Origin: Paludibacteraceae bacterium
Lineage (GTDB): Bacteria; Bacteroidota; Bacteroidia; Bacteroidales; Paludibacteraceae
Reading direction: 5' to 3'
DNA length: 64,000 bases
Assembly (NCBI GenBank): GCA_963621145.1
Contig: CAVFDI010000001.1
Location: forward strand, 79,066-143,065
In this document: in pieces, positions 20,801 to 33,127 of the stretch
Layout: the number at the start of each line of letters is the position of its first letter
Numbering within the stretch: position 1 is the stretch's first letter
Program-made: the position numbers and the translations under genes
The notes under the pieces: generated by a model
What the model saw: only the letters and a program-made list of their open reading frames with translations
Told to the model about the DNA's origin: nothing
Database searches by the model: none

Positions 20801-23800
20801 GCACCAATGCCGACGATCTGCAATACACATGGCTGCGCAACAACGAGGTGATTGCTGGTGCTACTACCAACACACTCATCGACTACCCAATGGGTACTGC
20901 CGACAATGTGAACGACACCATCTACACCTACGAGGTTGTGGTTCAGAACAAATCGAGCCATTGCCAAGCCGATCCAACTGGTCTGAAGTACTCGCTCACG
21001 GTGAAACCGCTGCCTGTACCAACCATTACGGCATTCGACAACAATGGCGATGTGATAGAGAAGAACCAGACGGTTTGTCCCGATCGCGATATTCGTCTGC
21101 AAGGTACGCACTTGTCGGGTAAATTGTTCCGCTACACTTGGTATTCGCAGAACCAAACCGATCCCGACATCACCGCTACCGACAAACCGAACGAGGTTTG
21201 GGTATCGCCGTCGCAAACTACCACCTACACCCTCGAAATCGAGAATTTGGAGACTGGTTGCAAGCGCACCACCACTCACACCATCAGTGTATTGGCTACG
21301 CCGAAGATTAAGATAATCAGCACTGCCAAACAGGACGATGGCAAATCGGTTGCTTGCGTAAACGATCCCGACATCACGCTGAAAGTGGTTCAGGCCGATG
21401 GCTCCGAGATTGACGACTTCAAGTTCAACATTACTTGGCTCGACGATCTGGGCAACGACCTTGGTGGCACGGCCGACATCACACTCACTGCCGATGCAGT
21501 CTCGACACACACCTACACCGTTCAGGTTGAGAATGTGCCAGGTGCTACAGGCCTGAAGTGCCCAGTTGTGGCTACTCATGTTGTCGATATTCAAACGGCT
21601 CCGACCGACATTACTATCGATGCTTACACCAACGATGGTCGCACGCTGCTCACCGAGAAAGAGTATGTATGCGCTGGCGAACCTGTGTTGCTCGAGGCTA
21701 AGAAACAAGACAAGATGACCTACGAATGGCGCGACGAGTGGGGCACGGTTTACACTGGCGACAACAACTCGCGTACATTCACTGTAAATCCGCAGAAAAC
21801 GACAGTCTACACCGTGAAAGTTACCAACATGGGCGGTTGCTCGTACGAGGTATCGCGTAAGATTTTGGTTAATCCTAAACCTACGGTAACCATAAGCGGG
21901 CCTACTTCGTTCTGTCTCGAAGAGGTGGGCAAGTCGTTCACTCTGAAGGCCACTTCGAACCCATATTCGAAGAACTACACCACCATTGTTTGGACCTACG
22001 AGGTAGATGGCGGCACCAACACCTTCGAGGGCCAGAGCATTGAATATGCTCCGCAAAAGGCTGGTACTTACAAGTTCACCGTGGTGGCACGTCACGAGTC
22101 GAACAGCACAATTTGCGAAAGCGATCCTGTTACCTACCAAGTGATAGTGGCTGGCGTTCCGCAAGTTGGTACCAAGGACTTGAAAGTGGTTTCGTCGCTC
22201 GACTCTACGGCCAATGCTTGCGTGAATACGCGCTTCGAGATTGAAGCCACGCCTGGCTACACCAAGTATGTGTTCGGTACTACCGATAGAGTGGTTTATA
22301 CACCAAAACAAGAGAGCGATAAGAACACATTCAACGATGTGGTGAAATCGGAAGGCTCGTGGATTTACTATTGCGACTTCTATAATGCTGCTGGTTGCTA
22401 CAGCCGTCAGGAAATCGACATCGAGGTTAATCCAATGCCTGATAATGTTACGATAACGCCAACTGCGGTGAATGGTGTTCTTAACAACTATAAGTCGGAG
22501 GGTGAACAGCCCGAGGTTGTTGTTTGCGAAGGCACTTCGTTGAAACTCAATGCAAATGCGACGGGTAAAACCAACAGTTATTCGTGGATCGATTCCGATG
22601 GCAAGACTCACCCATCGCAGCAGGAGATTAGCGTAACGCCGTCGCACACAACCACTTACACAGTGTCGGTAACTAACTTGAGCGGTTGCTTGGTAACAAG
22701 TCGCTTCACTGTGAAAGTTGTGCCGATGGATAAACTCACGCTCACAGCCAACAACACGAACGACTCGCTGGCTATCTGCGCCGGCAGCAAAGACAAAGTC
22801 ACGCTGCGTGTAACTGGCTCGTCGGCAAGCACTTACGACTATCGCTGCCCATCGACTGGTGCTTACTACTTGTCGAAACCTGCAAGCATTCAGATTCCTG
22901 CTCCGCAATCGGACGAAGTGTGGTTTGTCTACGCAAGTTCGAGCGCAAACAGCAGTTATGGCACAAGTTGCCAGAGCGAAGCGAGTGTCAAGATTCATGT
23001 TTTGAATAATCCTGACAACACGAAAGGCTCTATCAAGGTGAATGGCGGCGAATCGTTCACGGTTTGCGCTGGCTCTACCGTAACGCTCACTGGCGATCAT
23101 GCCGATGCCGTTACCTACTTGTGGAGCACTGGCGAAGTGAAGCCGTCAATCCAAGTGCTGATGCCGAACTACGAGAAGGATACTACCATCACATTCTGGG
23201 CAATAGGCCGCAACGCACTTGGCTGCGACAATACGCAAGACACCATGAAGTTGCAACTGTTCGTTCGTATGCAACCTGAGCCTAAGATTGTGAGCGAAAC
23301 CATCTGCTACGAGCAGCAACCGCTCCGTCTCGAGGCTGGCGACAAAGTGCTTACCTATCGCTGGTACGACGAGAATGGCAACGAGGTATCGCGCAAGTAC
23401 TATTGCGAGATTAAGCACGATACGGCAGGTATCTATAACTACAAACTGACTGCTCGCAACGATGCTGGCTGCGAAACCACCATCACCGTTTCGGTAACAG
23501 TTCGTCCGTTCGAGGCCAACATCTCGGGTCTGACCTATCTCTGCTCAGGCAATTCTACCAAACTTTGGGTCGATGGTTGCTCGTTGGCGGCTGGTTATCA
23601 GTTCCGCTGGACATTCGCAGGCGAGATATTCAGCACTGTCGACACGGTTACCGTATCGCGCCTCGGCACCTATGGAGTAGAAGTAACAACGCCGTGGCTG
23701 ACTAGCGCAGTTGGTACCATCGAGGTTCAGCAGAGCGAAACGCCGAATGTGAAGTTCACAACGCCGCAACCTGCTTGCCAAGGCGATCGCTACGCCATGT

Positions 23801-24495
23801 TGCCGTACAAGGTTACTTCGGGCATGCCTACGCAGTACACCATCATTCCTGTGGGCAATTCGCTTACGGCTGGATTCGATAGCGTGAGCGAGGCGGCTCT
23901 TGGGTCGGAATACATCTTCGTAACTCTGCCTAACCAAGTGGCTTCGGGCAACTACGAGGTTGTGATTCGCCTGACTAACGCTAATGGTTGCGGCAGCGCC
24001 GACTATCGCGTGAAGTTCTATGTGGGTCAAGACCTGATAGAAGAGGCGTGGTCCGATGTGCTGATGTGTAAAGACTTGAACCATGAATTTACCTCGTATC
24101 AGTGGTATCGCAATGGCGACCGCATAACGGGTGCAAACTTGCAATACTATTCTGAGACGGGCGGCTTCAATGGCGACTACTACGTAGTGGCTTACCGCAG
24201 CGATAGTTCGGAGGTTACCTCCTGCTCGAAGTCGGTTACTACGAAACAGAATGTCGGCGTATCGCCTAACCCAGTGCAGCGCTATAGCAAGTTGCAGGTC
24301 GAGGCTCCGTTTACCATCGACGAGCTGTTTGGCGCACGCCTCGAGGTGGTCGATGCTATCGGACGCACCATCTATGTGGTCGATAAGGTTGAAGCCGAAA
24401 ATTCGCTCTTTGTCAGCTACCCAGCGGGCGTCTACATGGTTCGCATAAGCTTGACCAACGGCGAAGTATTCACCGAGAAGTTTGTGGTACAATAA
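2824..24495 (+). CDS. giant (7,223 aa) secreted repeat protein: signal peptide, roughly 90 two-cysteine Ig-like modules and a T9SS type-A C-terminal sorting domain; probable surface adhesin
   Basis: Uninterrupted 21,672-nt ORF. Modules recur with C-x-G...L-T-A-x-G...Y-x-W...T-T-T-Y-x-V...G-C. The C-terminus reads SPNPVQRYSKLQVE...GVYMVRISLTNGEVFTEKFVVQ. The protein is Thr/Gly/Val/Ser-rich. Confidence 0.9.
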   Translation: MKRFSLSFAAVVVSLLSIAPLANAQTTFTPIVTPSNEVCANEGVTLSLTPNDGGTYQYNWKWTDGTGNTNNRKDQQTITDNPSATTTYEWWAYDEYSDLAGHGTVSVNVNSAPTVTADPSTYYVVSGGNVTLKVSGNALAKSFEWTAADGTVQASTTDELNLTNVTEDTQYSVVAVGAKGCKSKSVTVKVVTFDVEASNKTVCYGEQVTLTAKSNGAAKFYWDDGFVGQTHTVTPTGTPTTTYTVTIKDANDALMATQQIEVNVIAKPVVTLTPDETNICAGKTVTIVATNNTGHKGTYTWSEASVSGNSLTVEPTITTTYWVKFKDATTDCESDKTYCTINVSQTGSASINGANSTCVNTPIELTVSGGTPQRWFDENGIDITMPYTPTSVGTKTIYCIVKDANGCEVKAQKTITVAPALSPTIYGNFEICVGESATLSVSTDGATYLWSNNSTEQSITVSPTSDASYWVDVTKNGCTARKEQKVTVHAKPTINITGGTTICKGSTAVVTAVATGGSGSYTYAWSDEPSTINATLRVAPTTTTTYKVTATDAVTGCSSEKSVTIVVESNTPPTILGPTTVCKGVDFTLTASDGDSFAWDDDASTTKASMTASLTTDRTYTLTVKKGSCTYTVQHKVTVEDGPVGEITGETSICKGGSTKLTAPAGTSYTWSTGSTEQSITVTTAGTYWVEVKKGNCTLHKDITITVNTPTDASISTPDGLTLCANNELGLKLVASEGKAYKWSPTGETSQEITAKPTSTTLYSVTVTDAHGCESTASVLVTVVDDPTELALNASKTTVCKGENVILTVLNAPAGSTISSNDGNVTGNVVTHTASISKTVTVKVKSGTCEYVLTKDITVLDAPSGTITGTTSFCQGGSTVLAAPVAPAGQVYTYLWNTGETSSTITVSAVGDYYVTVSNGSCETKLPAVTVTENVPVAPTITASKTTICAGETITLTASNYGAITGWNDGIQNLGNAQVISVSPTTTTNYELVVTDANGCEAKAYQQIVVSAPIDVTLTGDNSVCEGGSISVTVSGAPSGSTYSWSTAGTLSNGDATLTFTPNVNDAAVSVTVTPPAAKGCAVTKTFSFTVTPAPTGNITGVTSICNGGSTTLYAPAGPAGTTYKWNNGATTQSITTPALFKNTTYSVDIVYPTGCTLSPTPVIVKINAAPTGTITASSDVVCVGEQVELTVTSATATGWSWSNGTTGTNKAYYTPTTSGNVQYYVDITANGCTERVSKNITVVDKPVAAIDKSASTSSFCEGEQVTVVATGGTRYELNGQTSTTGVFLLNPTATTTYTISVFNENGCESLVTHTVTKLAPTAEPSIVANGSLELCVGDSRTLSINNGTVVNWIDGTSTPNYIYTATSADLGTKTITAKVNDLNGCSKSVSLEFVVTEIPSVAITTTNETICKGEKVTLTATPGLASYSWESGEKTQEIIVSPSITTTYVVTGTNAGGCSSTAKITINVATPDAVSISGPVTACPGESVTLSAVGGKAWNWSHGLGTSNTATFNAATTTTYTCEITDSKGCVTKVSHTLTVKETPTPTVSGNLKVCKGLNTTLSASTADAYEWKKGATVLSTASTLTLTNVQSSEDYTLTVTVNGCQASTSFRVTACENPTDAAIVGKDKVCEGESVTLTAVGNGTYSWSTGATGSEITVMPTAANHIYQLTVTDMNGCTQMVQKNITVSPTPSVTIDGPTEVCAGQSVTLSASGTGTFLWDDGTTTTATLKVTPSVTRAYKVTLTDGSGCTVTASHTVTVKTLTAPKISAAKTDVCKGDKVTLTATGETGCTFTWPDLGRTGASIETYPTTTTTYKVTATNATGCTADGYITINVHEQPTVAVTVTKAAICAGESTTITVTGGTEYTCNGETNTSGIFNVSPTKTTPYNIVVKNSAGCTTTTSQTITVNELPTISVSGVDKACAGELISLTATGGTEYLWSNGMTSQTATYTVSGTGTMSVWVKGKNASGCWSGQVAHNITINAKPTIAVSGTMDICVGKSTTLTASGASTYVWTWLGGSAMGNTLNVNPTATTVYKVVGTDANGCVGETSVTVNVYPEPTVTITGPTEVCEGGEITLTANGTGTFLWNTGESSQQIKVSAAGTYSVTLTGEGGCISKAEYVVKQKSIIAKINDVIDGVSTICEGSDIILTASGGNAYKWDNGLGTNATVTVKPTTSTTYWVEVTDASGCSKRVSHTVKVTPKPTLTVVGNTTICYGETANITVSGAKTYVWSDGIGTGASIKVSPVSTSTYTVTATDENGCVATQDVKIEVIPTPVASIKASKTTVCEGESVTLTADGGDNYVWGDGSTGASITVTPTAPSTTYKVTAYKNGCASAEVSQVITVNALPTVTIKPSATTVCKGEEVTLTASGATSYEWSTGEKTQAITVTVNSDATYSVIGTQNGCQGTASQSIKVATPPTINISSNTGKLYICNGESITLTASGANTYTWSGGLGNTASITVTPTADTEYEVEGVSANGCKAKEKVKVIVYDKPNPKITGNTEICEGDYTILTADDANAVAWEWNTGAKTKSINAYQAGTYTVTVTGKGGCTSTATAIVTYLTPINGSISGPEIVCKGENVTLTASGGKTYQWDENTAESEKLVLTNIQVSGTHWVTITGANGCTQRLGHSIIVNEPPTLSITGNQTFCEGGSTTLTAVGTGDVLWNTGSTNRSITVSAEGDYTAKLTDANGCSTSQTVHVTRNPLPVAIITGPTKTCEGEPVTLSVSGAESYTWSTGATGQSITVQPTTTTTYTVTPKTGLCIGDPASFTITVNKKPVITFSGDLEICAGTKAVITADADGADQYVWGDGSTGATYTTAVLESNTTFTVTATNTTTNCSAQKQVTVIVNPKPEISISGTTSVCAGESTKLTASPSGATYAWSNGSTSRTATFSNLISDEDYWVDVTLANGCTNRLNGTIKVYDMPAAEITTNTGTNTVCRGESITLTASGGNTYLWTHDGTRSASVTVTPTKDSKYTVKVIGDGNCSSTASINIQVLDVPEAAIVADKTTVCEGDNVTLSANDGVKWQWYKGNAEIAGATGQHYTINSASYGTTTYKVVVENAAGCSTTASYALAVSRKPDATISGDLDICSGTSTTLTAPLSDSYLWSTGETTRSITVTPSATTDYSVTVTVGDCSATGVATVNVNPLPMVTLTPDDPTVCVGNSTILRAGTGFKYYKWSTGQEGPNLSSIGISPTENTVYTVTVTDAKGCTGVAQTTIAVTQVAAPTITVLSGSETVCAGEEVVLQSSAAKEYQWSSNVEVSQQSEQTVVVYPTQTSVYTVTTTNKAGCQSSKDITINVTKLPTPTITGADNMCKGDMTGVELTASSDVPGATFIWSTGDNTANIIVKPSKTTTYRVWASNGKCKNSTPAEFTLKVNDAPAAAITGKSAICLGESVTLEATGGVTYLWQNIEGSAKTLSKITVSPTQTTKYVCTVTDDHGCTKDASFEVVVNPLPKPSITGKNKICRGGSTTLAATGGNSYLWSTGETTKEIIVNPAYTTTYTVEASNANGCTSEATFTVEVVQEPKVHIDGPTVSCSGTPVTLTVTPDDSRTYTCIWKHNNSTKLAEAVNPTSSTTYEVEVFDGECSKILTHTVTVNKLEDPKIDGPAQICLGESTTLSVANVPNNFVSYQWSTGETTQSIEVKPAVVGMSTYTVTCTDANECTSEATIDIVVSALPDATITASTDVLCEGDNSVTLTASGAGISGKYNWYEDELATVLLAGGEGTPTYTFNDLTYTKKIYVVAISKLGCKSAPKEYELVVTPKPNPTITSSVPANVICTGGTVELSVSDPDPDVTFVWSDGTEGAHMTATAPGEYRVTATNVAGCTQDASITLIEEALPDAKITPSIIAGTGAGVAEENIARICAGTRLKLTATPQATPTLTYTYKWNTGSIASEIMVNPTASTTYSVVITSASGCEQTATIEVKVNEFVTIEGKTEVCAGMPYVLNAIGNNLSYYEWTRNGEKLPKYDGVASIDCVDSVPAGQMSAEVTYGVKCIYDNNCETDTTITVKVYAKPSDLTINGIGGVDAMDSVCVESAKQLSVIPTGGSSLTGATYKWTGSGITDETAATQTITPTTVGQETYSCQITMPGGCDTTVNIILKAVALPELAACPDTTICFGTEAQLYLTAKNNCPDGTTITWTSDNGGGGASGDVVRVAPTTTTTYTVTAKTPAPLGCSTTQTVTVTVIPQQQPTVTPSPALICLDAAGISEDDLNLTTEDTDSEGRTYKAYKWYAEDDPTTIIGTSNAITVPKANITATRTYVVEVTTQEGCTALGSVEVPVSEKPSVSIKGETQVCEGKSLVLQAESPINVTRYEWTTNDDPNTVFATTQSVTVWPTTTVNTYYLTVYNDKGCRFEVNPGHNVTILKAPKPQIAADHNPICEGDDVILTASDLNSGTCTVVWDDNSTNPVRKIIGLTSTTTYNVTLTNENGCVEQVEFTVDVNPLPKLKITGNTQVCVGDSVLLSVEDANGVDNKYSWTGGAWREATDKGSVNNSKVWVYPTNVVDSTEYCVTSVDVNSCNSKQVCHKILAFAKPIAMINGKQMATDTICVGQSLILEATGGSKFKWSTNAESQQITTPIYNSVNTYIFWVDVYNEANCVQRDSIWVKVMPKPNAYIESVSPATQVCEGTTVTMRASDAPSGSRYTYAWTNNTGETIENANQQEISVTPTITTAYKLVITDVETKCEKEILQTIYIDPKAKVNFTATPDTICEGDVFSIEIEGDVSGQAIAWEQLKNGTAQDVSSWAGMTSIVDSPTASEYIYRATLTNKVTGCLTVLERRLVVVRVPKAGIQIVNKTTSTVCQGDPVELQAWNDEGKYSTAENVQFVWMIGDDTIAPLNQRKIIVYPRTTTTYTVVMQSLVNGCTSSRDTTINVLEIPHVNIVEPDNQVICEDEEISFTLEGVLAEYGVAWHKYDRGTEVASWAKNGVTTVTDKPTKSEYDYKVVISNPLGCDTTIVRHLRVNSVPRPGIKFPGAKQDTICEGEEAWLQATNTEGSWSTMYYTYGWLNHGDTLTHDDYTLKLKPTKTDNYTFYIIDKASGCRRTIDTTVVVLPIPRVELSDPGTLLCEGEMYTLDLSSELPLTDANITWTKTDSYSVTLDTKSDIVTYSDKPTAGDYTYTVVVANANKCDTTIVRKLKVSSVPQPYILIGDGTGDTICEGDQVKLIGQNMKSNYNFTDYPVAWIVGNDTLQKDQTQLLHKPQKTTTYKFVVTNAATGCFIAVDTTIFVKARPATKLNVKLPSGSTDNTICKGESISMQIVDTVANNTDGLHVQWKRNGVIVTEWANKFDIVNYTPDDDESYVITVDNGRCPIVLNYDLKVNYLPDPTVELRSGSRVNCAGTRVDIGGAQNQDLDSRYVYEWTTVPVGEVIANPHDKDIAVYPYTTTTYVYTVTDTQTGCSRSDSIAITVNQRPKVTLEVVYPEGTEGNLICQTEPVTLRLRGETDSLKTLWFVNQIPQAEWADKLSITDAPSNERNDYTVKVYNANCELQIDTTILVSKVENPKIYSVGDITTICEGTKVELKALDPQITTMVNGKNINDYRWTSSNPKEVLENPTNQNILVYPKTTTTYTYTTTNLLTGCSRFDTLRIVVNLKPEAKFEVAYGANITADSTICAGDPVTLRVTSNDSGNLYTKWYANEHEVPDWENKLTITDVCPDSTVIYRVAVSNDYCEADRLEQTVKVKFVPNPTIDILRGGYTMCEGQQLLLVAKAAQRQDLGFKYQWLSSSPNDQISDSTGQSLTVYPTGITTYTYVITDPATGCSRTGQIQINVNKKPDVRLVTGSNTLAKDTLICGGNPVTLRVDGDLKNLTFAWYKNDLVQPGTSSTYTDTPESNAKYYVIVTDTTTGCETSQGDLAVDVEVNIMPVPTIELVGAGVTNHVCKGTTITLQAKEDQAHDVNKYRYQWSGGGKSSLGSTQSINVKPDVTTTYMYTVRNLITGCTRSVDTTIYVYDVPKVTLSSSIEQGYEDSYCAGDPVTLSVTAGEGTNADDLQYTWLRNNEVIAGATTNTLIDYPMGTADNVNDTIYTYEVVVQNKSSHCQADPTGLKYSLTVKPLPVPTITAFDNNGDVIEKNQTVCPDRDIRLQGTHLSGKLFRYTWYSQNQTDPDITATDKPNEVWVSPSQTTTYTLEIENLETGCKRTTTHTISVLATPKIKIISTAKQDDGKSVACVNDPDITLKVVQADGSEIDDFKFNITWLDDLGNDLGGTADITLTADAVSTHTYTVQVENVPGATGLKCPVVATHVVDIQTAPTDITIDAYTNDGRTLLTEKEYVCAGEPVLLEAKKQDKMTYEWRDEWGTVYTGDNNSRTFTVNPQKTTVYTVKVTNMGGCSYEVSRKILVNPKPTVTISGPTSFCLEEVGKSFTLKATSNPYSKNYTTIVWTYEVDGGTNTFEGQSIEYAPQKAGTYKFTVVARHESNSTICESDPVTYQVIVAGVPQVGTKDLKVVSSLDSTANACVNTRFEIEATPGYTKYVFGTTDRVVYTPKQESDKNTFNDVVKSEGSWIYYCDFYNAAGCYSRQEIDIEVNPMPDNVTITPTAVNGVLNNYKSEGEQPEVVVCEGTSLKLNANATGKTNSYSWIDSDGKTHPSQQEISVTPSHTTTYTVSVTNLSGCLVTSRFTVKVVPMDKLTLTANNTNDSLAICAGSKDKVTLRVTGSSASTYDYRCPSTGAYYLSKPASIQIPAPQSDEVWFVYASSSANSSYGTSCQSEASVKIHVLNNPDNTKGSIKVNGGESFTVCAGSTVTLTGDHADAVTYLWSTGEVKPSIQVLMPNYEKDTTITFWAIGRNALGCDNTQDTMKLQLFVRMQPEPKIVSETICYEQQPLRLEAGDKVLTYRWYDENGNEVSRKYYCEIKHDTAGIYNYKLTARNDAGCETTITVSVTVRPFEANISGLTYLCSGNSTKLWVDGCSLAAGYQFRWTFAGEIFSTVDTVTVSRLGTYGVEVTTPWLTSAVGTIEVQQSETPNVKFTTPQPACQGDRYAMLPYKVTSGMPTQYTIIPVGNSLTAGFDSVSEAALGSEYIFVTLPNQVASGNYEVVIRLTNANGCGSADYRVKFYVGQDLIEEAWSDVLMCKDLNHEFTSYQWYRNGDRITGANLQYYSETGGFNGDYYVVAYRSDSSEVTSCSKSVTTKQNVGVSPNPVQRYSKLQVEAPFTIDELFGARLEVVDAIGRTIYVVDKVEAENSLFVSYPAGVYMVRISLTNGEVFTEKFVVQ
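2900..23740 (+). repeat. array of diverged ~75-80-aa (~230-240 nt) Ig-like modules; boundaries approximate
   Basis: Protein-level periodicity read from the translation. Copies are strongly diverged at the nucleotide level, and I noticed no long exact DNA repeats. Confidence 0.8.
16939..21890 (+). repeat. supra-repeat zone of about nine alternating A/B module pairs
   Basis: A type: ICEGD..W....W..K..I.D.P....Y.Y.V.V.N..C...L.V..VP.P, without T-T-T-Y. B type: C.G..V.L.A...Y.W....I.VYP.TTTY.Y...D..TGC.R.D. They alternate from KAKVNFTATPDTICEGD onward. Confidence 0.7.
24253..24492 (+). other. T9SS type-A C-terminal sorting domain (Por_Secre_tail-like)
   Basis: VGVSPNPVQRYSKLQVEAPFTIDELFGARLEVVDAIGRTIYVV...YPAGVYMVRISLTNGEVFTEKFVVQ has the typical xPNP start, G-x-Y-hydrophobic strand and K-hydrophobic terminal strand. 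Confidence 0.8.
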
Positions 24496-24521: not shown

Positions 24522-25427
24522 ATGAAAATTCAGAAGAAAAGAATGGCGCTTGCCGCTTGCCTATTGGTGGCGGCAAGCATAGCCGCTCCAGCCAAAACAC
24601 CAGCCTACATCGACCTTGAATTGGGCGGCGGTGCAGTGATGATGCCTTATAGCAATACTGATTATGGTATTTTTTCGGGCGGTAATTTCGATTTAGGAGC
24701 AAAATACTCGTTGCTTTTCCACCCGCGCAAAGGTTGGGGCGCAAGTTTTGGATTGAATTTTAGCACTTTTCAGGGAACGAAGGTGCTGAATGCAAGCCTC
24801 ACCTCGCCTGCTATCGACGACCAAGGACGCAGTTATGTGCTTTTTGCCGATGTGGCCAACTGGACCGAGCGTCAGCAGCAGTATTCCATCTCCATTCCAA
24901 TTAGCATCTTCTATCAGCATCAGCGTCCGCGTCACTCGGGCTGGTTCACATCGTTTGGTGTGAAACTCTATCTGCCGTTCTACACCGATTATCGCGTTAC
25001 GCAGGGCGACATTGTTACTAAGGGCTTCTACACGCAGTGGGGTGGCACTTACGACTACAATGGCGAACAGGGAGTGCTGATACAGTCGCTGCCGCAGCAC
25101 GGTTTCGGACAATACAACACGCTGCTGCCCAAAGGCGAAAATAAGGCCAATTTCTTGCTAACTGGTCAGGTGATGTTTGGCGCCATTCTGCGTCTCGACA
25201 AGAAAAACGAGATGTATTTGGCACTCTACATCGAGCATGGCTTCTACGACATGTACATCAATCGCGATGCGAAGGGCTTGTTCTCAACGATTCAGAGCCT
25301 CAATTCGTATCAGTACAACGGCTACTATTCGAGCCTTGCTACCAAAACCATACCAGCAATGTTTGGCTTGAAAGTGGGTTGGCGCTTCAAAGACGTGCAC
25401 GATTGTAACTGCATACGCCAACAGTAA
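24522..25427 (+). CDS. outer-membrane beta-barrel protein (porin-family-like), probably co-transcribed with the giant gene
   Basis: Signal peptide MKIQKKRMALAACLLVAASIAAPA, alternating amphipathic strands and a near-terminal GLKVGWRF strand. It starts 26 nt after the giant-gene stop, and a terminator follows. Confidence 0.7.
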   Translation: MKIQKKRMALAACLLVAASIAAPAKTPAYIDLELGGGAVMMPYSNTDYGIFSGGNFDLGAKYSLLFHPRKGWGASFGLNFSTFQGTKVLNASLTSPAIDDQGRSYVLFADVANWTERQQQYSISIPISIFYQHQRPRHSGWFTSFGVKLYLPFYTDYRVTQGDIVTKGFYTQWGGTYDYNGEQGVLIQSLPQHGFGQYNTLLPKGENKANFLLTGQVMFGAILRLDKKNEMYLALYIEHGFYDMYINRDAKGLFSTIQSLNSYQYNGYYSSLATKTIPAMFGLKVGWRFKDVHDCNCIRQQ

Positions 25428-25519: not shown

Positions 25520-25861
25520 CTACCCGATTTTACCAACGTGCGCTGTGCCGTTAGAAGCCTTCAGAATGTCTGCATCGTTGGCATAGTTGCGCGTGAGTTT
25601 GTTGTTGGTTGTGCCATAATCGCTGTCGTCGCAGTATTTTGTCATGGCATTGTAGGTGGTGCCGTATTTGTAACTGCTCCACGAATAGGTACTTTTCGTG
25701 TACTTTTCGCCCCATGCATAACGGTTGCCAGTGCCTTCGGGCTGCGATGCGCCCACATTGCAGGTTGCCCACCGAACGCTCAAACCAAGGTCGACCGAAG
25801 TTGCCGCCTGTGCAGCGACCGACAGCGCAATTGCGGTAAAAAGTGTAGTGATTTTTCTCAT
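25520..25861 (-). CDS. small secreted protein, possibly a 3'-truncated remnant
   Basis: Signal peptide MRKITTLFTAIALSVAAQA, then DLGLSVRWATCNVGA...YAWGE. From memory this motif pair begins larger Bacteroidales secreted proteins. The ORF stops at ...TAHVGKIG followed by two stops. Confidence 0.5.
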   Translation of the reverse strand: MRKITTLFTAIALSVAAQAATSVDLGLSVRWATCNVGASQPEGTGNRYAWGEKYTKSTYSWSSYKYGTTYNAMTKYCDDSDYGTTNNKLTRNYANDADILKASNGTAHVGKIG

Positions 25862-25974: not shown

Positions 25975-26391
25975 TTACTCTTTGTAGGTGTACGGTAGCG
26001 TTACCTTTTCGTCATCCACATTTGTGTATGTAACGATGATTTTGAGCATGGTAATTCCAGAGCTAAGTTTCTCAGGAACGCCCAATTCGTCTCTAACACG
26101 TTGGTCCGCACTTTGGGCAGCATGTTCTACTTTCTGTTTGACCTCCTTCGCATTGCTTTGCTGACGCATAATTACTGCGTTGTTCAACTCCTGTGGGCGT
26201 GTGCCAATTTTGGAGAGTTCTTCCATGAATAGTTCTTGCACATCGTACAACGTTACGCCTGTAGAACCTGAACCATTGGTGCTAGAATAATTAATTTCTG
26301 ATGTCATGCTCACTACAATGTCTTTCGATATGGTCTCCTCGCATGCAGTGAAACCAATCAACGCTGCGCAGCACACGGCCGCAAAAATCAT
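25975..26391 (-). CDS. hypothetical lipoprotein
   Basis: MIFAAVCCAALIGFTAC lipobox-like signal. No family recognised. Confidence 0.55.
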   Translation of the reverse strand: MIFAAVCCAALIGFTACEETISKDIVVSMTSEINYSSTNGSGSTGVTLYDVQELFMEELSKIGTRPQELNNAVIMRQQSNAKEVKQKVEHAAQSADQRVRDELGVPEKLSSGITMLKIIVTYTNVDDEKVTLPYTYKE

Positions 26392-26548: not shown

Positions 26549-28609
26549 TCAAAACTTATACTGCACATACACTCTGAAATCGGTTTTGTGGCAACCTGCT
26601 ATTTGGTTAAGACCAGAACCGATTTGCGTGCGGCCGTCGGTGTAGTAGGTCTGAGCCACACGCAGATAGAATTTCAAATCGCGAATTGGCTCGTAGTCGA
26701 TGTTCAAGTACCAACGATTGCCCACGCCATACATCGATGGCGAAAAGCCTGCGCTCGGCACATCGCGCTCGAACAGCGAAAAACGGTTGTCGTAGACTGT
26801 CGCGTCGAAATAGGCGTAGCGTGCGCTCAAGGTCATGTCGATTTTTTTGAAGGTGTAAGCCACATCTTGCGCTATCAGAAAACCATGCGAAGGCCGCTCT
26901 TTTTCAATGCGCACACGATTCCATTCCACCACGCTCTTCAAATCGAACCCCAGCACAGTGTAGTTCATGCAATAGCGCAGCGAGAGTTTGCGACTATCGG
27001 CCAGAAAAGTGGTTGCCTCGTGGCTTAGCGCTGCCGCCTTTGCCTCTTTGTAGCGATAGCGCATGCGCAGATACATCGCCAGGCGACTGTTTTTCATGTA
27101 ATCGACCTGAAGTAGGGTGGCGTAACCTTGCGTTGGGCGTGGCATGCTGTAGGTTACCCACGGTGTTTTGTAGAGATCGGCATATGCCGCAATTTTCCAA
27201 TTTTTGACGGGTTTTATCTCGCTTCCAATGTAGATGCCGTGTTCGTTGCGTGTGGCGGTCTGACCGAATGCATTGGCAAAAAATAGGTCGTAGTTGCGGC
27301 TGTAGTAACGGTGCGAAAGTACAAAATTCACCACCGAGGCTGGCGCAAAAGTCAGTCCGTTGATGGTGGCAACAGCACCGCGCCCCGTTACAGCCGTCTC
27401 GCCAAAAATGCCAAATCCGCGCCACGAAAACAGATAATCGACGCTGGCGGCAAATTGCTTATCTCCTCGGAAATAGAATTGCTGATAAGGCTTCGGGTCG
27501 TAGTCGAGCGGCACGCCCAGCCAAGTCTGCACAGCGGTGGCTCCAATGCGGAAAAATTTGTGCCGATAGCTCACGTTAGCACCCAAAACGTGCATTCCAA
27601 CGGTGCGACGACGCGCATATTCGTTGGGCGTGCGGTGGTAGCCATCTTTTTTGAACGATGAAAATGCTCCTCCGCTAGTGTCGGCGTCCATTTTTCGGTA
27701 CGAATAGAAGGCCGAAACATCGAAATTGCCAAATTGAGCGGTTGCGCCCACGCCTCGCAGAAAATTGTATTCGTCGGTCGACGAGTGGCGCTTCAGGCCG
27801 CGTGTGCGTGCCGAAACATTCGTGGCCATGGCGGTTGCGCCCATGTTCATGTCTTGCCTGATGACGAGTCCTTGACCAAAATTTGCCCGATAATCGCCCA
27901 AGACGATGGTGGAGAATTTCCACAATTTTTTCATCTGAATGAATCCTGAATAGGAATCGAACAATTTTTTGTTGTACGCGCCAACCCACTGTTCGCCAGC
28001 GTCTTTCTCCATGGTCAGTCCCACTTCGAGCTTGTCGCTGCTGCGCAATCGGTATTTCAGCGAAGTGTAGAACGGATCGCCCACGTAGCGCGCATTCGGA
28101 TTGGCGGCCAATTCCTCATCGGAAATGGAAGTGTAGCCTTTTCGGCGTTCGAAAGTGCCATCGAAACGCAGCGTGAATTCGTGTTTGCTCTCTTTCAAAA
28201 TGTCGCGCAAGTGCCATTCTGTTTCGGCATCGGGCGGCTCCACGCGCACAAATGGCAACAACATCTGAATGGTGAAAATGTCGAGTCCTTCGACCAACTG
28301 CAGTTCGTAGATGGTTTGCATGCGACCAGCTTTGTAGATGTAGTACATCAAATTTTCAATCTGAATGTCGCTCAAAAAACGCAACTGCGCCAAGTCGTCG
28401 GGCGTGGCGGTGTTCAGATTGATGGGCGAAAGATAGATGGCTTCGAGGTCGTCGTACAAATCGCCGTAGTCAATTTCGCCATCTTCGGCATCCTCCATCA
28501 GAAAATCGTAGATGCGCTCTATCACGCGGTCGATAGCTACCTCGTCTTGCGCTGCTGCCGAGCCAACAGTGAGCAACGCCGCCAACGCTATGGTTGCGAG
28601 GCGTTTCAT
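26549..28609 (-). CDS. outer-membrane beta-barrel protein with an N-terminal ComEA-like tandem helix-hairpin-helix module
   Basis: ORF trimmed to MKRLATIALAALLTVGSAAAQ (ATG 28609). INLNTATPDDLAQLRFLSDIQIENLMYYI...IYELQLVEGLDIFTIQMLLPFV gives two HhH motifs. About 560 aa of barrel-like sequence follow, ending ...DFRVYVQYKF. Confidence 0.75.
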   Translation of the reverse strand: MKRLATIALAALLTVGSAAAQDEVAIDRVIERIYDFLMEDAEDGEIDYGDLYDDLEAIYLSPINLNTATPDDLAQLRFLSDIQIENLMYYIYKAGRMQTIYELQLVEGLDIFTIQMLLPFVRVEPPDAETEWHLRDILKESKHEFTLRFDGTFERRKGYTSISDEELAANPNARYVGDPFYTSLKYRLRSSDKLEVGLTMEKDAGEQWVGAYNKKLFDSYSGFIQMKKLWKFSTIVLGDYRANFGQGLVIRQDMNMGATAMATNVSARTRGLKRHSSTDEYNFLRGVGATAQFGNFDVSAFYSYRKMDADTSGGAFSSFKKDGYHRTPNEYARRRTVGMHVLGANVSYRHKFFRIGATAVQTWLGVPLDYDPKPYQQFYFRGDKQFAASVDYLFSWRGFGIFGETAVTGRGAVATINGLTFAPASVVNFVLSHRYYSRNYDLFFANAFGQTATRNEHGIYIGSEIKPVKNWKIAAYADLYKTPWVTYSMPRPTQGYATLLQVDYMKNSRLAMYLRMRYRYKEAKAAALSHEATTFLADSRKLSLRYCMNYTVLGFDLKSVVEWNRVRIEKERPSHGFLIAQDVAYTFKKIDMTLSARYAYFDATVYDNRFSLFERDVPSAGFSPSMYGVGNRWYLNIDYEPIRDLKFYLRVAQTYYTDGRTQIGSGLNQIAGCHKTDFRVYVQYKF

Positions 28610-29445
28610 CGGCCAAAACGGTATTGAAGTGCGCCGAGCATGGTCACGCCCAGCGGATTGCGGTATTCGCAGTGCAGATGAAAACGGAAGCCGCCCCAGC
28701 CGCAGCCCACGCCAAGGGTTGGCACCACATAGTCGCTGCCGTAGCAACCAATGCGCACGTCGAACACGTCGAATGGTGCGTATTCAAAGCCTGTGGCCCA
28801 CCGCAGCGGCGAATGTACCTCTTTGTCTATTTGCACCAGCCACGCCACTTTCTCGTGAATTTTGTAGTTCGTTCCCAGACTGAAAACCGATGGCAGGCGT
28901 TTTTCGGTGAGGTCGCTTTTTATTTTCGAAAAGATGGGGTTGAACGCACTAAAACCGATGGTGAGCGATGGAATCACTTGTACCTGAAAACCCACTTGCA
29001 CGGTGGCTGTGCTGCGGTAGCGTTCTGTCGGCGAAAGGTAAACTGCGTAGTAGTCGCACTCCACGCCAAGGTGGAAAATTTCGCCAAAAGTGCGTGCAAA
29101 GGTTACGGCTGCCAGCATTTCGTTGTATTCGGCATAGCCAAAATACGAAAATTGTGCGCCAATGTTGATGTATTTCGTTGGAATGGCCACGCTTGCTGCG
29201 GCATTCGATAGTTCGGCTGTGATGTAGCGATTTTCGTAGAGTAGCGAAACGGCATATTGCTTTTCGCAAGCCAATGCAGCTGGATTTTGGAACGGTTGCC
29301 ACTCGGCTGTGTAGGCCACCGAGGCATTGCCTGCCGTGTACGAACTTGGTACGATGGTGGCTATTTGCGCCTGCATTGTGCCGCTTGTGCAGGTTGCAAA
29401 AACGAGCAGTACGATGTTTGCAAATTGTCTTACGGAGCGATGCAT
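28606..29445 (-). CDS. PorV/PorQ- or PorP/SprF-like outer-membrane beta-barrel
   Basis: Signal peptide ...ATCTSGTMQAQ. The AGNASVAYTAEWQPFQNPAALA motif resembles the G-x-A...NPAgLA signature of T9SS barrel families. Ends in LGALQYRFGR. Its stop overlaps the next ATG (ATGA at 28606..28609). Confidence 0.5.
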   Translation of the reverse strand: MHRSVRQFANIVLLVFATCTSGTMQAQIATIVPSSYTAGNASVAYTAEWQPFQNPAALACEKQYAVSLLYENRYITAELSNAAASVAIPTKYINIGAQFSYFGYAEYNEMLAAVTFARTFGEIFHLGVECDYYAVYLSPTERYRSTATVQVGFQVQVIPSLTIGFSAFNPIFSKIKSDLTEKRLPSVFSLGTNYKIHEKVAWLVQIDKEVHSPLRWATGFEYAPFDVFDVRIGCYGSDYVVPTLGVGCGWGGFRFHLHCEYRNPLGVTMLGALQYRFGR

Positions 29446-29473
29446 TTTTGGCAGTTGATAGGTTAGTTGCCGT

Positions 29474-29481
29474 CAAAAATA
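29474..29481 (-). promoter_or_regulatory. -7 box (TATTTTTG on minus strand)
   Basis: Plus-strand caaaaata, 29 nt upstream of ATG 29445. Confidence 0.5.
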
Positions 29482-29781
29482 GGCAAAAACTGTTTAATTT
29501 GCAAATTTTCGCTCCAAAAAATTGTTCATAGGCTCAAAACGATGTACGAAAACAGTCGAAAATGCCGATGAGTAGGGTGTTTGTTACGATTTGGAAAAAT
29601 GGCGATTGTGGACTGATTTTGAAGATTTTTGGTGAATTTTGTCAGGATTTTTGCGTTTTTCGTCGAGAAAATAGCGCCATTTTTGCGTAAAAATCAGAAA
29701 AATGCGTGCAAAGATGAAAAAACTGGGAATGATTTTCGGTGAAAATGGTAAGTCTTATACTTCAATTTTTGCAGTGCCCCG

Positions 29782-29805
29782 TCTTTACTCCTTACTCCTT
29801 ACTCA
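29782..29805 (-). repeat. heptad tract (GGAGTAA)n overlapping the HD-gene stop
   Basis: The sense strand reads TAA GGAGTAA GGAGTAA AGACGG. Confidence 0.8.
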
Positions 29806-30341
29806 AATTTCTCTACCCATTCGTCGAAGCGTTCTACCGACGAATCGCCGAAACGGGCAAGTTTTTCGCGGGCTTGGTCGATGGTTAGCTCTTGGTCGAG
29901 GTGCGATTTGGAATAGAATTTATCGGCATAGCAAATCAGCTGCTCTTCGAGGCTAATAGGGCGCATATCGCGGTGCGGCAGCGGCAGGTCTTGCTCCAAA
30001 ATCTGCTCGAGCGAAATGCCCGTGCCAGTGTGACGCTCGCACACAAGAGCGTGGCGCGGCAGACCTTCGCGACGCATCAATTCGGCACCAAGGTAACCAT
30101 GCTCGATGTAGCGATGAGATCCCACGCAGAAAATTTTTGGCGCTTCGGTCATAAAAATGCCAATGTCGTGCAGCATGGCGGCTTCGGCCACAAAATCGGT
30201 GTCGATACCGAGTTCGGGGTGGCGGCTGGCCAACAGCAACGCCTTGTTGCAAACCGACTGACTGTGCTTCACAAGCGTGTCGTAGAGCGGCGTGCCTGGC
30301 AGATAATAGTGCGTGATTATGTCGAATACGTCAACTTTCAT
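29799..30341 (-). CDS. HD-domain phosphohydrolase
   Basis: H...HD motif (AAMLHDIGIF), 180 aa. Starts 27 nt after the upstream nuclease stop. Confidence 0.85.
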   Translation of the reverse strand: MKVDVFDIITHYYLPGTPLYDTLVKHSQSVCNKALLLASRHPELGIDTDFVAEAAMLHDIGIFMTEAPKIFCVGSHRYIEHGYLGAELMRREGLPRHALVCERHTGTGISLEQILEQDLPLPHRDMRPISLEEQLICYADKFYSKSHLDQELTIDQAREKLARFGDSSVERFDEWVEKFE

Positions 30342-30368
30342 AAACTCTGATTTTTCTGACGTGAATGA

Positions 30369-32291
30369 TTATTTCATCACTATTTTTTGAGTGATTGTTT
30401 TGCCGCTTTCGTTTTTCAATTGCAAAATAACAATGCCCGATGCCCCAAAATTGGCAGTGCTGAGTGTGGCGCTATCGTCGCTGATTTCTATCGAGTAGAG
30501 TGTGCGTCCGAGCATGTCGTAAACCGTGGCGGTGAAGCCTTGAGCGCGCTCTATGCGCACCAATCCATCGTGCGAAATGGTCTGCACAAATGGCGCGTCG
30601 TCGTTGCTGATATTTGGCACGGGCGTGTCGTCGTGGTAAGTGCCGAGGCTCAAACCCACAACCACCGCATCGTGGTCTGAATAGCGATACATCAACTCGT
30701 CGGTGTCGCTCTCGTAGCCAAAAATTGTCGGCTCATCGGCACTGAAATGAGCCACTCTGGCACCGGTAACTTGCGCCGTCATAGTGCTGTTGCCCAGCGC
30801 GTGGTCGAGCAGCCCGAAACGTCCGTTGTAGACATACGAATAGGCGTTTGCATCGTATTTTCTGAGCAGATTCCGGTAGCCTGCGCTCACAAATTTCTGT
30901 ACAGGATCTTCCATCGAATGGGCATTCATATCGCCCATTATCAGCACATCAGGGTCGAGGGTTTGCGCTGCACATTTATTGATAATCGATTCCGCCTCGG
31001 CCACGCGTGTGGCGTTGTAAGCACCCTGACCATCGTTCTGGTCTTGGTCGCTGCCCGAAGCCGACGACGAACCGCTTTTCGACTTTAAGTGATTGAGCGA
31101 CAGCACAAAAGCCTCTCCATTTTCGTTCAGTTTGAAAGCCTGAATCACCTTTCGATAATAGGTTTTCAGATTGTTCATTTGCAGACTGCCGAGCGGCGTC
31201 ACGCGGTCGTTGCGGTAGATGATGGCGCTTTTGGTGTACGACGAATAGACCGATGTTCCATCGTTGATGTACGAATAGATTTGACTGCCAGCGGCTTCGT
31301 TCATTGCGTTGCAAAGGTAGGCAATGGCGTCTTGCCCCTGTTGCATTTCGAGCAATCCGTAGATGTCGGCATCGATGGCGCGCAGGGCTTTCACTATTTT
31401 GGCGTGCTGACGATTGGCAAGCGTCTCGTTAGCGGCTCCATAGCCTGTGCCAAAATCGCTTCGCAAATAGTATTGAAGATTGGCAGCGCATACCACCAGA
31501 TTGCATTCGCCAAGGTCGGGGCGCGCGGCCGGACGCTCGTTGCTGTGCCATGCTGGCGTGGTAGCGGTCTGCAGACGGTGACTATTTCCGCTCGACGAAA
31601 CCACCGTTGCTACCAAATCATCAACCTGATAACCCGTTCGTAGCGTGCCGTTGGCATCGGCAAAAGGCCTGTTTTGCGATGTGGCTGGCGCAAGAATCAG
31701 ATAGTTGCGGCTGTTCTCATTCACCACGGTTTGATATTCGCTGCTGCTGGGCAATGCCACCTCGGTGGGCGTCATCAGCAGACCATTCGACAGCGTGATG
31801 GTGCTGTTTGTGCCGCTGTTCCAATAGCGGTTGTTGGTTACGGTGAGCGTGTTGGCAAATTGCACCGACATGCCCACATAGTTGCTGCCTTTGCCATCTG
31901 CAAAATCATCTGGAAAAGTTACTTTTGTAGTATTAACTTGTTGATGTTCAGCGGTTTTTTCTATGCTTGAAACATTGTGCAGTGTGTCGTCGGAGCAAAA
32001 AGCCGTCAGAGTTATGCCGTTGCCGAGGCGGATATTGGCAGTGTCGGTCAATACAAAAATGGCATCACGCGTCGAGTCGTCGCCATCGCCCGTGGCATCT
32101 TGAATGAAAAATCCATCGCCCAAAATGGCAGTTACCACGCCCGATGTTTTCACTTCGTTTGCAGCGATTTTGGTGGTTGATTTTGCCGTTTTTCGTTGAT
32201 TGCATGGCAATTCGTAGATGCGCATGGCGGTCTGCGCTGTGGCAAAAATAGCTATGGTTAGCGCAAAAATGAGCGAGTAGGTGCGTTTCAT
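30369..32291 (-). CDS. extracellular endonuclease/exonuclease/phosphatase-fold nuclease (ExeM/NucH-like) with a T9SS C-terminal sorting domain
   Basis: ORF trimmed to MKRTYSLIFALTIAIFATAQ (ATG 32291). Has a GDGFFIQDATGDGDDSTRDAIFV OB-like region, the EEP motif YSDHDAVVVGLSL, and a C-terminus TVYDMLGRTLYSIE...GIVILQLKNESGKTITQKIVMK. Confidence 0.75.
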   Translation of the reverse strand: MKRTYSLIFALTIAIFATAQTAMRIYELPCNQRKTAKSTTKIAANEVKTSGVVTAILGDGFFIQDATGDGDDSTRDAIFVLTDTANIRLGNGITLTAFCSDDTLHNVSSIEKTAEHQQVNTTKVTFPDDFADGKGSNYVGMSVQFANTLTVTNNRYWNSGTNSTITLSNGLLMTPTEVALPSSSEYQTVVNENSRNYLILAPATSQNRPFADANGTLRTGYQVDDLVATVVSSSGNSHRLQTATTPAWHSNERPAARPDLGECNLVVCAANLQYYLRSDFGTGYGAANETLANRQHAKIVKALRAIDADIYGLLEMQQGQDAIAYLCNAMNEAAGSQIYSYINDGTSVYSSYTKSAIIYRNDRVTPLGSLQMNNLKTYYRKVIQAFKLNENGEAFVLSLNHLKSKSGSSSASGSDQDQNDGQGAYNATRVAEAESIINKCAAQTLDPDVLIMGDMNAHSMEDPVQKFVSAGYRNLLRKYDANAYSYVYNGRFGLLDHALGNSTMTAQVTGARVAHFSADEPTIFGYESDTDELMYRYSDHDAVVVGLSLGTYHDDTPVPNISNDDAPFVQTISHDGLVRIERAQGFTATVYDMLGRTLYSIEISDDSATLSTANFGASGIVILQLKNESGKTITQKIVMK

Positions 32292-32362
32292 TGCTGATTT
32301 GATTTTCAAACCTGCAAATTTACTCACATTTGACCGATTTTGCAAATTTGCTGAAAAAGTAC

Positions 32363-32370
32363 TACTTTTG
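32363..32370 (+). promoter_or_regulatory. -7 box TACTTTTG for smpB
   Basis: Consensus TAnnTTTG that ends 5 nt before ATG 32376. Confidence 0.55.
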
Positions 32371-32375
32371 CACTC

Positions 32376-32837
32376 TTGATGAAAACGAAAGTCGACATAA
32401 AAAATCGTCGCGCCTCGTTCGACTACGAGTTGCTCGATCGCTACACGGCTGGCATTGTGCTTTGCGGAACAGAGATTAAGTCCATTCGCGAGGGGCATGC
32501 CGCTCTTACCGACGCCTTTTGCACTTTTACCGATGGCGAGTTGTGGGTTCGCAACATGCATATCAGCGAATATCGGCTTGGCACTTGCTACAACCACGAT
32601 GCGCAGCGGGTGCGTAAATTGCTACTCACACGGCGCGAACTGCGCAAATTGCAGCGAGCAGTGAAAGAGAGCGGACTCACCATTGTGCCGACTTCGCTCT
32701 ACATCAACGAAAAGGGCTTGGCGAAACTTAATATTGCTCTTGCGCGAGGCAAAAAAAACTACGACAAGCGCGATTCCCTGCGCGAAAAAGCCGACCGCCG
32801 CGAGATGGACAGAGTTCGTAAAGTGAAAAGTTTGTAA
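32376..32837 (+). CDS. smpB: SsrA-binding protein
   Basis: [32 protein letters not shown]...[11 protein letters not shown]...[28 protein letters not shown]. Confidence 0.95.
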
Positions 32838-32947
32838 AATCGACGATTGCGAAAGAATTAGAATGATGCGTTTGCAGATTTTCTGGAGCAAAAAATCTTG
32901 CGCGTCACTTTTTTCTTGAAAAATTTTGTCAATTCGACAAAAAACAC

Positions 32948-32955
32948 TACTTTTG
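32948..32955 (+). promoter_or_regulatory. -7 box TACTTTTG for tRNA-Thr
   Basis: Consensus box 14 nt upstream of tRNA position 1. Confidence 0.6.
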
Positions 32956-32969
32956 CAGCCGAAAAAATT

Positions 32970-33042
<73 letters not shown>

Positions 33043-33050
33043 CACAAAAC

Positions 33051-33091
33051 AAGCGCAGTACCTCGTTGGGGGGCTGCGCTTGATGTTTTTT
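33051..33091 (+). terminator. rho-independent terminator after tRNA-Thr
   Basis: aagcgcag / ctgcgctt 8-bp stem followed by a TTTTTT run. Confidence 0.7.
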
Positions 33092-33104
33092 GTCGATAAA
33101 ATCG

Positions 33105-33112
33105 TATCTTTG
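33105..33112 (+). promoter_or_regulatory. -7 box TATCTTTG
   Basis: Consensus box 16 nt upstream of ATG 33128. Confidence 0.5.
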
Positions 33113-33127
33113 CAACAATAAATATCC

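Follow-up and report, generated by a model that had tools for sequence, protein, structure and literature searches.

Introduction

The outer membranes of Bacteroidota are built around unusual multi-barrel assemblies, SprA–PorV and BamA–BamG. In the first of these, the barrel of SprA (Sov), with 36 strands in a protein of about 2,400 residues, is partnered with the much smaller PorV, a 14-strand barrel of the FadL fold. In the second, BamG has been reported to be an essential FadL-fold subunit that is bound to the back of BamA by its extended N-terminal tail. Here we describe a pair of genes in a 64,000-nucleotide stretch of contig CAVFDI010000001.1 from a Paludibacteraceae bacterium (positions 79,066 to 143,065, to be referred to as the window). 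The pair, at 26549..29445 of the window, encodes a small outer-membrane barrel and a large one that carries a helix-hairpin-helix (HhH) module near its N terminus. The two genes are kept together across many species, and the HhH module has lost the residues that would be expected of a DNA binder. We suggest that the two proteins may form a two-barrel complex, with this module as an interaction or gating domain.

The HhH module also invites comparison with the competence proteins. ComEA (COG1555) is a small protein that is periplasmic or membrane-anchored. The first hairpin (HhH1) of Vibrio cholerae ComEA reads G-I-G-P-K-K, and the substitutions G60E, G60V, K63E and K62/63A abolish both DNA binding and transformation. 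Competence in Porphyromonas gingivalis depends on ComEC together with a dedicated ComEA protein (PGN_0421), and the passage across the outer membrane has been described as unclear in this species. In Riemerella, competence needs ComEC, ComF, DprA, a separate HhH protein, and the outer-membrane pair RA0C_RS04915/04920. A study from 2025 has assigned DNA import across the outer membrane of Bacteroidales to DdbC/DdbD, which are homologous to this Riemerella pair. DdbC is a TonB-dependent transporter (TBDT), its partner is a DNA-binding surface lipoprotein of the DUF5689 family, and nucleases are linked to the system. Finally, PorF (PG0534) is an outer-membrane barrel of the type 9 secretion system (T9SS) with a mass of 92 kDa. 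It is required for gingipain secretion and is best modeled on TonB-dependent receptors, but its role is unknown.

The gene pair and its conservation

Both genes are located on the reverse strand, with the small gene upstream of the large one:

28606..29445, reverse strand, small outer-membrane barrel gene, 279 residues (open reading frame list)
26549..28609, reverse strand, large outer-membrane protein gene, 686 residues plus stop codon (open reading frame list and homologue alignment)
28606..28609, reverse strand, ATGA overlap between the TGA of the small gene and the ATG of the large gene (junction sequence GGCCGATGAAACGC)

These coordinates and the junction sequence agree with the initial annotation of the locus. 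The start of the large protein could also be placed further upstream, in a TTG-initiated open reading frame of 732 residues. The 686-residue form is preferred because 24 homologues begin at the same position in the alignment, with MK or MR and a signal peptide.

The small gene is paired with the large one far beyond chance. Of 80 loci sampled from different species, 66 have a small-gene homologue directly upstream of the large gene and on the same strand. This survey bears out the synteny of the pair. The exceptions include three loci in which the upstream sequence is too short (L066, L069 and L080) and about nine loci of Bacteroides, Phocaeicola or uncultured Bacteroidales that have no adjacent partner. 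As the small gene is missing beside the copies in Bacteroides and Phocaeicola, the large barrel may work without an adjacent partner there, or its partner gene may lie at another locus.

On its own, an overlap of the ATGA type is frequent at operon junctions. Among the 30 homologous junctions that were scored, the –4 overlap is observed in seven, and most of the others are gaps of 60 nucleotides or fewer. The operon is therefore kept, but the overlap itself is not conserved. Gene order thus supports co-transcription of the small and large genes. The fixed stoichiometry that had been read from the overlap goes a step further and is conjectural.

A candidate –7 element of the Bacteroidota type, TATTTTTG, is located at 29474..29481 on the reverse strand, 28 nucleotides 5′ of the ATG of the small gene, and presumably corresponds to the consensus TAnnTTTG. 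Scans of the region for sigma-70 promoters and terminators gave matches at background level only, and no Rfam element is present in the 350 nucleotides upstream.

The large family is broad. At 50% identity, 8,988 clusters match with E ≤ 1e-3, of which 4,528 reach E ≤ 1e-30. Among the 150 best matches listed, nearly all are full-length proteins of roughly 660–715 residues, and a few are fragments or longer forms. The gene is found in at least 571 species-representative genomes, and its hosts include other Paludibacteraceae (the closest, at 73% identity), Parabacteroides, Phocaeicola vulgatus, Bacteroides, Porphyromonas, Tannerella, Flavobacteriales, and one metagenome-assembled genome of Chlorobiota. 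No publication that characterizes the pair was found in the literature, consistent with the earlier statement that it has no described function. A candidate orthologue of the large protein is BT3167, an HhH domain-containing protein that PMC10434189 lists at –3.7-fold in its table of the iron-dependent stimulon.

Genes are inserted between the two barrel genes at three loci. In two of them, from uncultured Bacteroidales (L040:1483-2439 and L077:914-1807), the insert codes for a membrane protein that is polytopic and carries an HExxH motif (HEIGHAVF or HELGHAIF). In the third (L075, Flavobacteriales), a lipoprotein gene and an ORF6N-like gene are inserted. We considered these insertions as a clue to function and found them uninformative.

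Structure of the small protein

After its signal peptide, the small protein has an N-terminal tail, which is conserved and contains an NPA motif, and then a compact 14-strand barrel. The segment GNASVAY...FQNPAALA in the tail is the most conserved part of the family in the alignment. The AlphaFold 2 (AF2) model, calculated with an alignment of 31 sequences, has a predicted local distance difference test score (pLDDT) of 91 and a predicted template modeling score (pTM) of 0.82, and shows 14 long strands after the N-terminal tail.

A search of this model against the Protein Data Bank (PDB), with the program Foldseek, finds chain F of entry 8gl6 (8gl6_F) as the top match, with E = 4e-10, a template modeling (TM) score of 0.76 and a root-mean-square deviation of 3.8 Å. 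This is a chain of the Flavobacterium johnsoniae T9SS translocon complex, which we take to be PorV from its size and from the composition of the complex. The next matches are FadL-family transporters, OmpG and BamG (9hiv_F and 9n2d_B; TM scores of 0.55–0.56).

Sequence profiles give a weaker relationship. The small protein has no match in a Pfam scan. The NCBIfam model PorV_fam (NF033709) matches it with E = 4e-10 and 39.8 bits, below the cutoff of 90, and the PorQ model (NF033711) with E = 0.044 and 12.8 bits, against a cutoff of 220. PorV_fam matches 29 of the 31 small homologues, in all cases below the cutoff (best E = 6e-11). The other weak matches in this set are to PorV (NF033710) in seven members, PorQ in three, and PorP/SprF (TIGR03519) in three (best E = 2.4e-5), while the BamG model (NF053685) matches a single member weakly (6.6e-5). 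The Pfam family PorP/SprF (PF11751) is carried solely by the most distant profile match of the small protein. In the databases the family is labeled just ‘hypothetical protein’.

As the fold matches are strong and the profile scores lie below the family cutoffs, the small protein belongs to the FadL/PorV fold superfamily as a compact member, and is not a bona fide PorV, PorQ or PorP. The initial annotation, which recognized a T9SS-like barrel here, was correct at the level of the superfamily but not at that of the family. The N-terminal NPA-type tail is a further likeness to PorV. In comparison, PorV has about 370–400 residues, and the 279-residue small protein has short loops. Its resemblance to BamG is restricted to the FadL fold.

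Structure of the large protein

The large protein can be divided into four segments:

28550..28609, reverse strand, signal peptide, residues 1–20, MKRLATIALAALLTVGSAAA and then Q (sequence reading; the ...AQ junction is conserved in the alignment, and the cleavage site is presumed)
28430..28549, reverse strand, acidic helical segment, residues 21–60 (net charge –13; helices at 2–40 and 48–60 in the AF2 model)
28244..28429, reverse strand, double HhH module, residues 61–122 (Pfam HHH_3 at residues 62–122; hairpins degenerate)
26552..28192, reverse strand, barrel domain of about 24 strands, residues ~140–686 (24 long strands assigned by DSSP on the AF2 model)

The family average for the charge of the acidic segment is –11. 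The protein ends in ...YKF. The sequence features on which the initial annotation was based are all present, namely the acidic segment, the stretch INLNTATPDDL...LLPFV and the C-terminal Phe in the large protein, and GNASVAY...FQNPAALA in the small one. The AF2 model of the large protein (pLDDT of 78, pTM of 0.65) has helices up to about residue 120, followed by 24 long strands. The models of the two products, with 14 and 24 long strands, agree with their description as outer-membrane barrels. With an even number of strands, the general topology of outer-membrane barrels suggests that the N terminus of the large protein should be in the periplasm or inside the lumen.

The most conserved motifs of the barrel are EKDAGEQ, GDYRANFGQGLV, SSTDEYNFFRG and FGETA, which form invariant columns in the alignment. 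Judging from the order of the strands in the model, the first three are likely to sit around extracellular loops 2 and 3. On the face of the strands that points to the lumen, strand periodicity gives an estimated charge of about +11 (28 basic and 17 acidic residues). A net-basic lumen would suit a polyanionic substrate, or the docking of the acidic N-terminal module.

No Pfam barrel, Plug or TonB-dependent-receptor family is found at E ≤ 1 in 25 members of the large family. The barrel of about 550 residues falls in no Pfam family, domains of unknown function included, and the domain libraries capture the 60-residue HhH module only. A Foldseek search with the barrel finds generic big barrels alone, such as MtrB and TonB-dependent transporters, with TM scores of 0.3–0.47. 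A profile search of the PDB with the large protein finds no solved relative of the barrel, the matches being confined to the HhH region.

The large protein appears to be distinct from the large barrels of the known systems. With about 24 strands, 686 residues and an HhH module, it has no similarity to SprA. It lacks the POTRA and Omp85 features of BamA, and neither protein of the pair is among the purified subunits of the F. johnsoniae BAM complex. PorF is also a large outer-membrane barrel of Bacteroidota. However, PorF has about 820–830 residues (alignments of about 829 columns) and carries a TBDT annotation, whereas members of the large family have about 690 residues, the HhH module, and no TBDT matches. 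The possibility that the large barrel is PorF was rejected on size and the TBDT-like annotation; the two are set apart here by description, not by sequence. Overall, the pair is not among the roughly 20 named components of the T9SS.

The helix-hairpin-helix module

The initial annotation interpreted the INLNTATPDDL...LLPFV stretch as two HhH motifs of the ComEA type that bind double-stranded DNA non-specifically. A search with hidden Markov models confirms the fold. The Pfam family HHH_3 scores 27.8 bits on the window protein, where the gathering score is 27, and it matches all 25 homologues that were scanned (best E = 1.6e-9). In profile searches of the PDB, the HhH region matches EEPD1 with E = 0.014 and ComEA with E of about 0.7, and a single-sequence search gives 0.0017 for EEPD1 and 0.058 for ComEA (8dfk). 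The homology of the module to ComEA at the level of the fold is thus real but weak, as judged from these scores. The scaffold residues of the HHH_3 fold are kept (INxNTA..EL..L and G.fQTI.eL..V.G).

There is a large difference, however, in the hairpins themselves. In the alignment with ComEA (8dfk/8dss), the residues G-V-G-P-S-K of HhH1 are replaced by F-L-S-D-I-Q in the window protein, and the residues G-I-G-E-K of the second hairpin (HhH2) by G-L-D-I-F. The same replacements are seen across the family. Among 266 members, HhH1 has the pattern [F/L]-L-[S/T/N]-[D/E]-hydrophobic-Q, with Gln83 in 253 and an acidic residue at Asp81 in 212, and HhH2 has the pattern G-[L/F]-D, with Asp110 in 202. 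The canonical second glycine and the lysine that follows it are common in neither hairpin, and HhH1 has no common glycine at all. Instead, a conserved acidic residue is present in each hairpin. Averaged over these members, the net charge of the entire N-terminal module is –14.2, with a range from –24 to –3.

The large protein therefore lacks both G-Φ-G hairpins (Φ being a hydrophobic residue) and the Lys pair of ComEA, and the module lies in an acidic context and is fused to a barrel of about 560 residues. The non-glycine residues of the hairpins are strongly conserved, so a specific interface fits better than contacts with the DNA backbone only. As the substitutions are conserved rather than the product of drift, the hairpins probably form a specific, non-canonical binding surface. 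The ComEA-type fold of the initial annotation is thus retained while its DNA-binding determinants are gone, and, from the sequence of the hairpins, a role of the module as a ComEA-type DNA binder or DNA receptor is unlikely. A match to the ComEA model TIGR01259 (comE) is observed at 14.5 bits only, against a cutoff of 152.35.

An HhH-type helical module is also found in the envelope machine that contains GspK. The T2SSK_1st family (the first domain of GspK) matches 11 of 25 members of the large family weakly, below threshold, and the NCBIfam GspK model matches the window protein with E = 0.16. The large protein, however, has neither a pseudopilin N terminus nor the context of a type II secretion system (T2SS). 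We know of no DNA-binding role for the GspK pseudopilin. The Riemerella HhH gene RA0C_RS02645 was rejected as a counterpart, having another architecture, with its HhH at residues 236–301 and a predicted periplasmic location.

Neighboring genes

The genes upstream of the pair in the window are as follows:

29799..30341, reverse strand, HDIG-domain gene, after the DNase gene and just upstream of the pair
30369..32597, reverse strand, ExeM/NucH extracellular endonuclease with a T9SS C-terminal sorting domain (score of 356 bits, cutoff 300; 0.9 kb upstream of the pair)
32970..33043, tRNA-Thr, between the pair and the DUF4294 gene
33779..35041, AAA_14/DUF4143 ATPase, between the pair and the DUF4294 gene
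35140..36072, GluRS-like gene with a tRNA-synt_1c catalytic domain, between the pair and the DUF4294 gene
36092..37183, open reading frame with no family match, between the pair and the DUF4294 gene
37219..38130, FAD synthetase/riboflavin kinase gene, between the pair and the DUF4294 gene
38292..38885, reverse strand, DUF4294 gene, 197 residues, secreted and basic (Pfam DUF4294, E = 3e-49)

Among these, DUF4294 is the recurrent neighbor. In 46 of the 80 loci it is divergently adjacent to the pair or, in Bacteroides and Phocaeicola, to the large gene alone. Proteins of this family have about 165 residues and a mean net charge of +9, complementary to that of the acidic N-terminal module in the large protein. 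For DUF4294, neither publications nor a solved relative were found. The other recurrent neighbors in the 80 loci are unrelated housekeeping genes, and no nuclease, competence or T9SS gene is a conserved neighbor.

In the window the DUF4294 gene is separated from the pair by a rearrangement. The closest relative (L001) has the order housekeeping block, DUF4294, pair. In the window (compared over the region 29446..44886), the pair is inverted relative to DUF4294, with about 9 kb of other genes between them, and DUF4294 is separated from the housekeeping block by a further 6 kb or so. The inversion left the small and large genes together.

The ExeM/NucH DNase gene and the HDIG gene have no counterpart at any of the 80 homologous loci. 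Their adjacency to the pair is therefore incidental, and a functional link was rejected.

On the other side of the pair, the window encodes a giant protein of 7,223 residues (2824..24495, forward strand) with repeated Ig/PKD-like modules and a T9SS type-A sorting domain (TIGR04183, E = 2.4e-7), which is probably a surface adhesin. An open reading frame of 301 residues with a signal peptide and no family match (24522..25427, forward strand) starts 27 nucleotides downstream of it. Two open reading frames for secreted or lipoprotein-like products are located downstream of the pair (25975..26391, reverse strand, 138 residues; 25520..25861, reverse strand, 113 residues), both with no family matches. 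Downstream of the pair in L001 there are two weak, paralogue-like matches to the 113-residue product.

Proposed function of the pair

We tentatively propose, with somewhat less than even confidence, that the two proteins assemble into a heteromeric complex of two outer-membrane barrels. The degenerate HhH module would serve as a domain for interaction or gating, either in the periplasm or as a plug of the lumen, and DUF4294 is a possible partner. The complex is proposed to be confined to Bacteroidota and their relatives. The large protein would form a channel-sized barrel of about 24 strands. The small 14-strand barrel would dock on the wall or lateral seam of this barrel through its conserved N-terminal NPA tail, by analogy with PorV at the SprA translocon and BamG at BamA. 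The acidic segment and the degenerate double HhH would lie on the periplasmic side and serve for protein interaction or gating, rather than as a DNA clamp. This N-terminal module could plug the net-basic lumen, or recruit a basic periplasmic partner, for which the co-located DUF4294 protein is the obvious candidate. The charges of the three elements are complementary, at –14 for the N-terminal module, about +11 for the lumen face, and +9 for DUF4294. A basic lumen would favor an anionic or amphipathic component of the envelope as the substrate.

Several observations weigh against this proposal. The model of the large protein has a pTM of 0.65, and several of its conserved loops have pLDDT values below 50. 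Contact between the small and large barrels is suggested by synteny and analogy, and the small partner does not adjoin the large gene in the Bacteroides and Phocaeicola loci. In addition, every member of the large family that was scanned still matches HHH_3, a DNA-binding family, and the basic lumen would suit DNA as well. Net charge is also weak evidence, as the HhH domain of Bacillus subtilis ComEA is near neutral by our own count.

Alternative explanations

The best of the alternatives, although rather unlikely, is a pore for envelope biogenesis or export with a substrate other than DNA, for example a surface lipoprotein, a glycolipid or an anionic polysaccharide. The FadL-like partner would then provide a lateral route to the outer leaflet, and the N-terminal domain would receive the substrate or a chaperone in the periplasm, in analogy to the POTRA domains of BamA or the TPR domains of Slam. 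The family is very widespread in Bacteroidota and uniform in its make-up, which would fit a housekeeping function in the envelope, and its neighbors besides DUF4294 are likewise unrelated housekeeping genes. Lateral openings in the FadL fold serve hydrophobic substrates, BamG is essential in a biogenesis machine, and the motifs of the extracellular loops are strongly conserved. On the other hand, no genes for glycosyltransferases, Lol, Lpt or lipoproteins are linked to the pair, and the proteins are absent from the purified F. johnsoniae BAM subunits.

A machine for handling DNA is unlikely. In this explanation the barrel is a conduit for the uptake of DNA or the release of extracellular DNA (eDNA), the periplasmic HhH tether grips or ratchets DNA, and the small barrel is an accessory. 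It would account for the HHH_3 matches in all 25 members, for EEPD1 and ComEA HhH domains as the nearest solved sequence relatives of the module, for the net-basic lumen, and for the secreted DNase 0.9 kb upstream in the window. The hairpins speak against this explanation, as the G-Φ-G motifs and following lysines are missing from both across the 266 members, with an acidic residue conserved in each, and equivalent changes in ComEA (G60E, K63E and K62/63A) abolish DNA binding. Moreover, the net charge of the module is –14, none of the 80 loci has the DNase or HD gene, and no competence gene is among the conserved neighbors.

The known routes of DNA uptake in this phylum also differ from the pair. 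P. gingivalis and Riemerella use separate ComEA or HhH proteins, and no such barrel was recovered in the Riemerella transposon screen, which was not saturating. The outer-membrane step is now assigned to the TBDT of the DdbC/DdbD type. This system is likewise an outer-membrane barrel system of Bacteroidota with a proposed link to nucleic acids. However, TBDT and Plug domains are absent from the pair, which also lacks a lipoprotein partner and a nuclease as conserved neighbor. DdbC/DdbD occupies the niche that the initial annotation had in mind for the pair, and the premise of a lineage that lacks a route for DNA across the outer membrane is outdated. The more specific suggestion of a surface receptor for eDNA is unlikely also because the even strand count, about 24, would be expected to place the N terminus in the periplasm or the lumen. 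The degenerate hairpins, the charge of –14 and the lack of a conserved DNase neighbor argue against both the receptor and the conduit.

A role as an accessory or anchoring module of the T9SS is quite improbable. Here the small barrel would bind a cargo or component of this system, as in PorQ–PorZ or PorP with type-B cargo, and the large barrel would be its membrane platform. The closest structure to the small protein is 8gl6_F, its family has matches below threshold to PorV_fam, PorQ and PorP/SprF, and the genome of the window uses the T9SS, with two cargoes nearby that carry type-A C-terminal domains. The small partner is also present in the T9SS lineages that were sampled (Porphyromonas, Tannerella, Parabacteroides and Flavobacteriales) and missing at the Bacteroides and Phocaeicola loci, but this pattern could be due to a single lineage-specific loss. 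The scores are far under the family cutoffs (39.8 against 90, and 12.8 against 220 for PorQ), and no T9SS gene is a conserved neighbor. The large barrel persists in the Bacteroides/Phocaeicola group, in species of which PorT has been reported to be absent. The pair is outside the named T9SS components, and PorF, the unexplained large barrel of that system, differs in size and is TBDT-like.

The least probable explanation, a long shot, is that the pair, perhaps together with DUF4294, provides a polyanionic polymer (eDNA or a different anionic polymer of the envelope) with a channel whose basic lumen is autoinhibited by an acidic, DNA-mimicking plug derived from HhH and whose opening is controlled by the PorV-like barrel at the lateral seam. 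If true, the pair would represent a gated outer-membrane conduit of a new class, made from a repurposed ComEA domain.

Implications

The two-barrel complex remains the explanation that we prefer. The label ‘helix-hairpin-helix’ or ‘ComEA-like’ should not be equated with DNA binding once the glycines and lysines of the hairpins have given way to conserved acidic and hydrophobic residues. Alongside SprA–PorV and BamA–BamG, the pair looks like a third example of a multi-barrel assembly in the outer membrane of Bacteroidota. It is present in thousands of sequence clusters, in Parabacteroides, Phocaeicola and Bacteroides of the gut and in Porphyromonas and Tannerella of the mouth. To learn what the pair transports or anchors would close a gap in our understanding of the envelopes of major commensals and pathogens.

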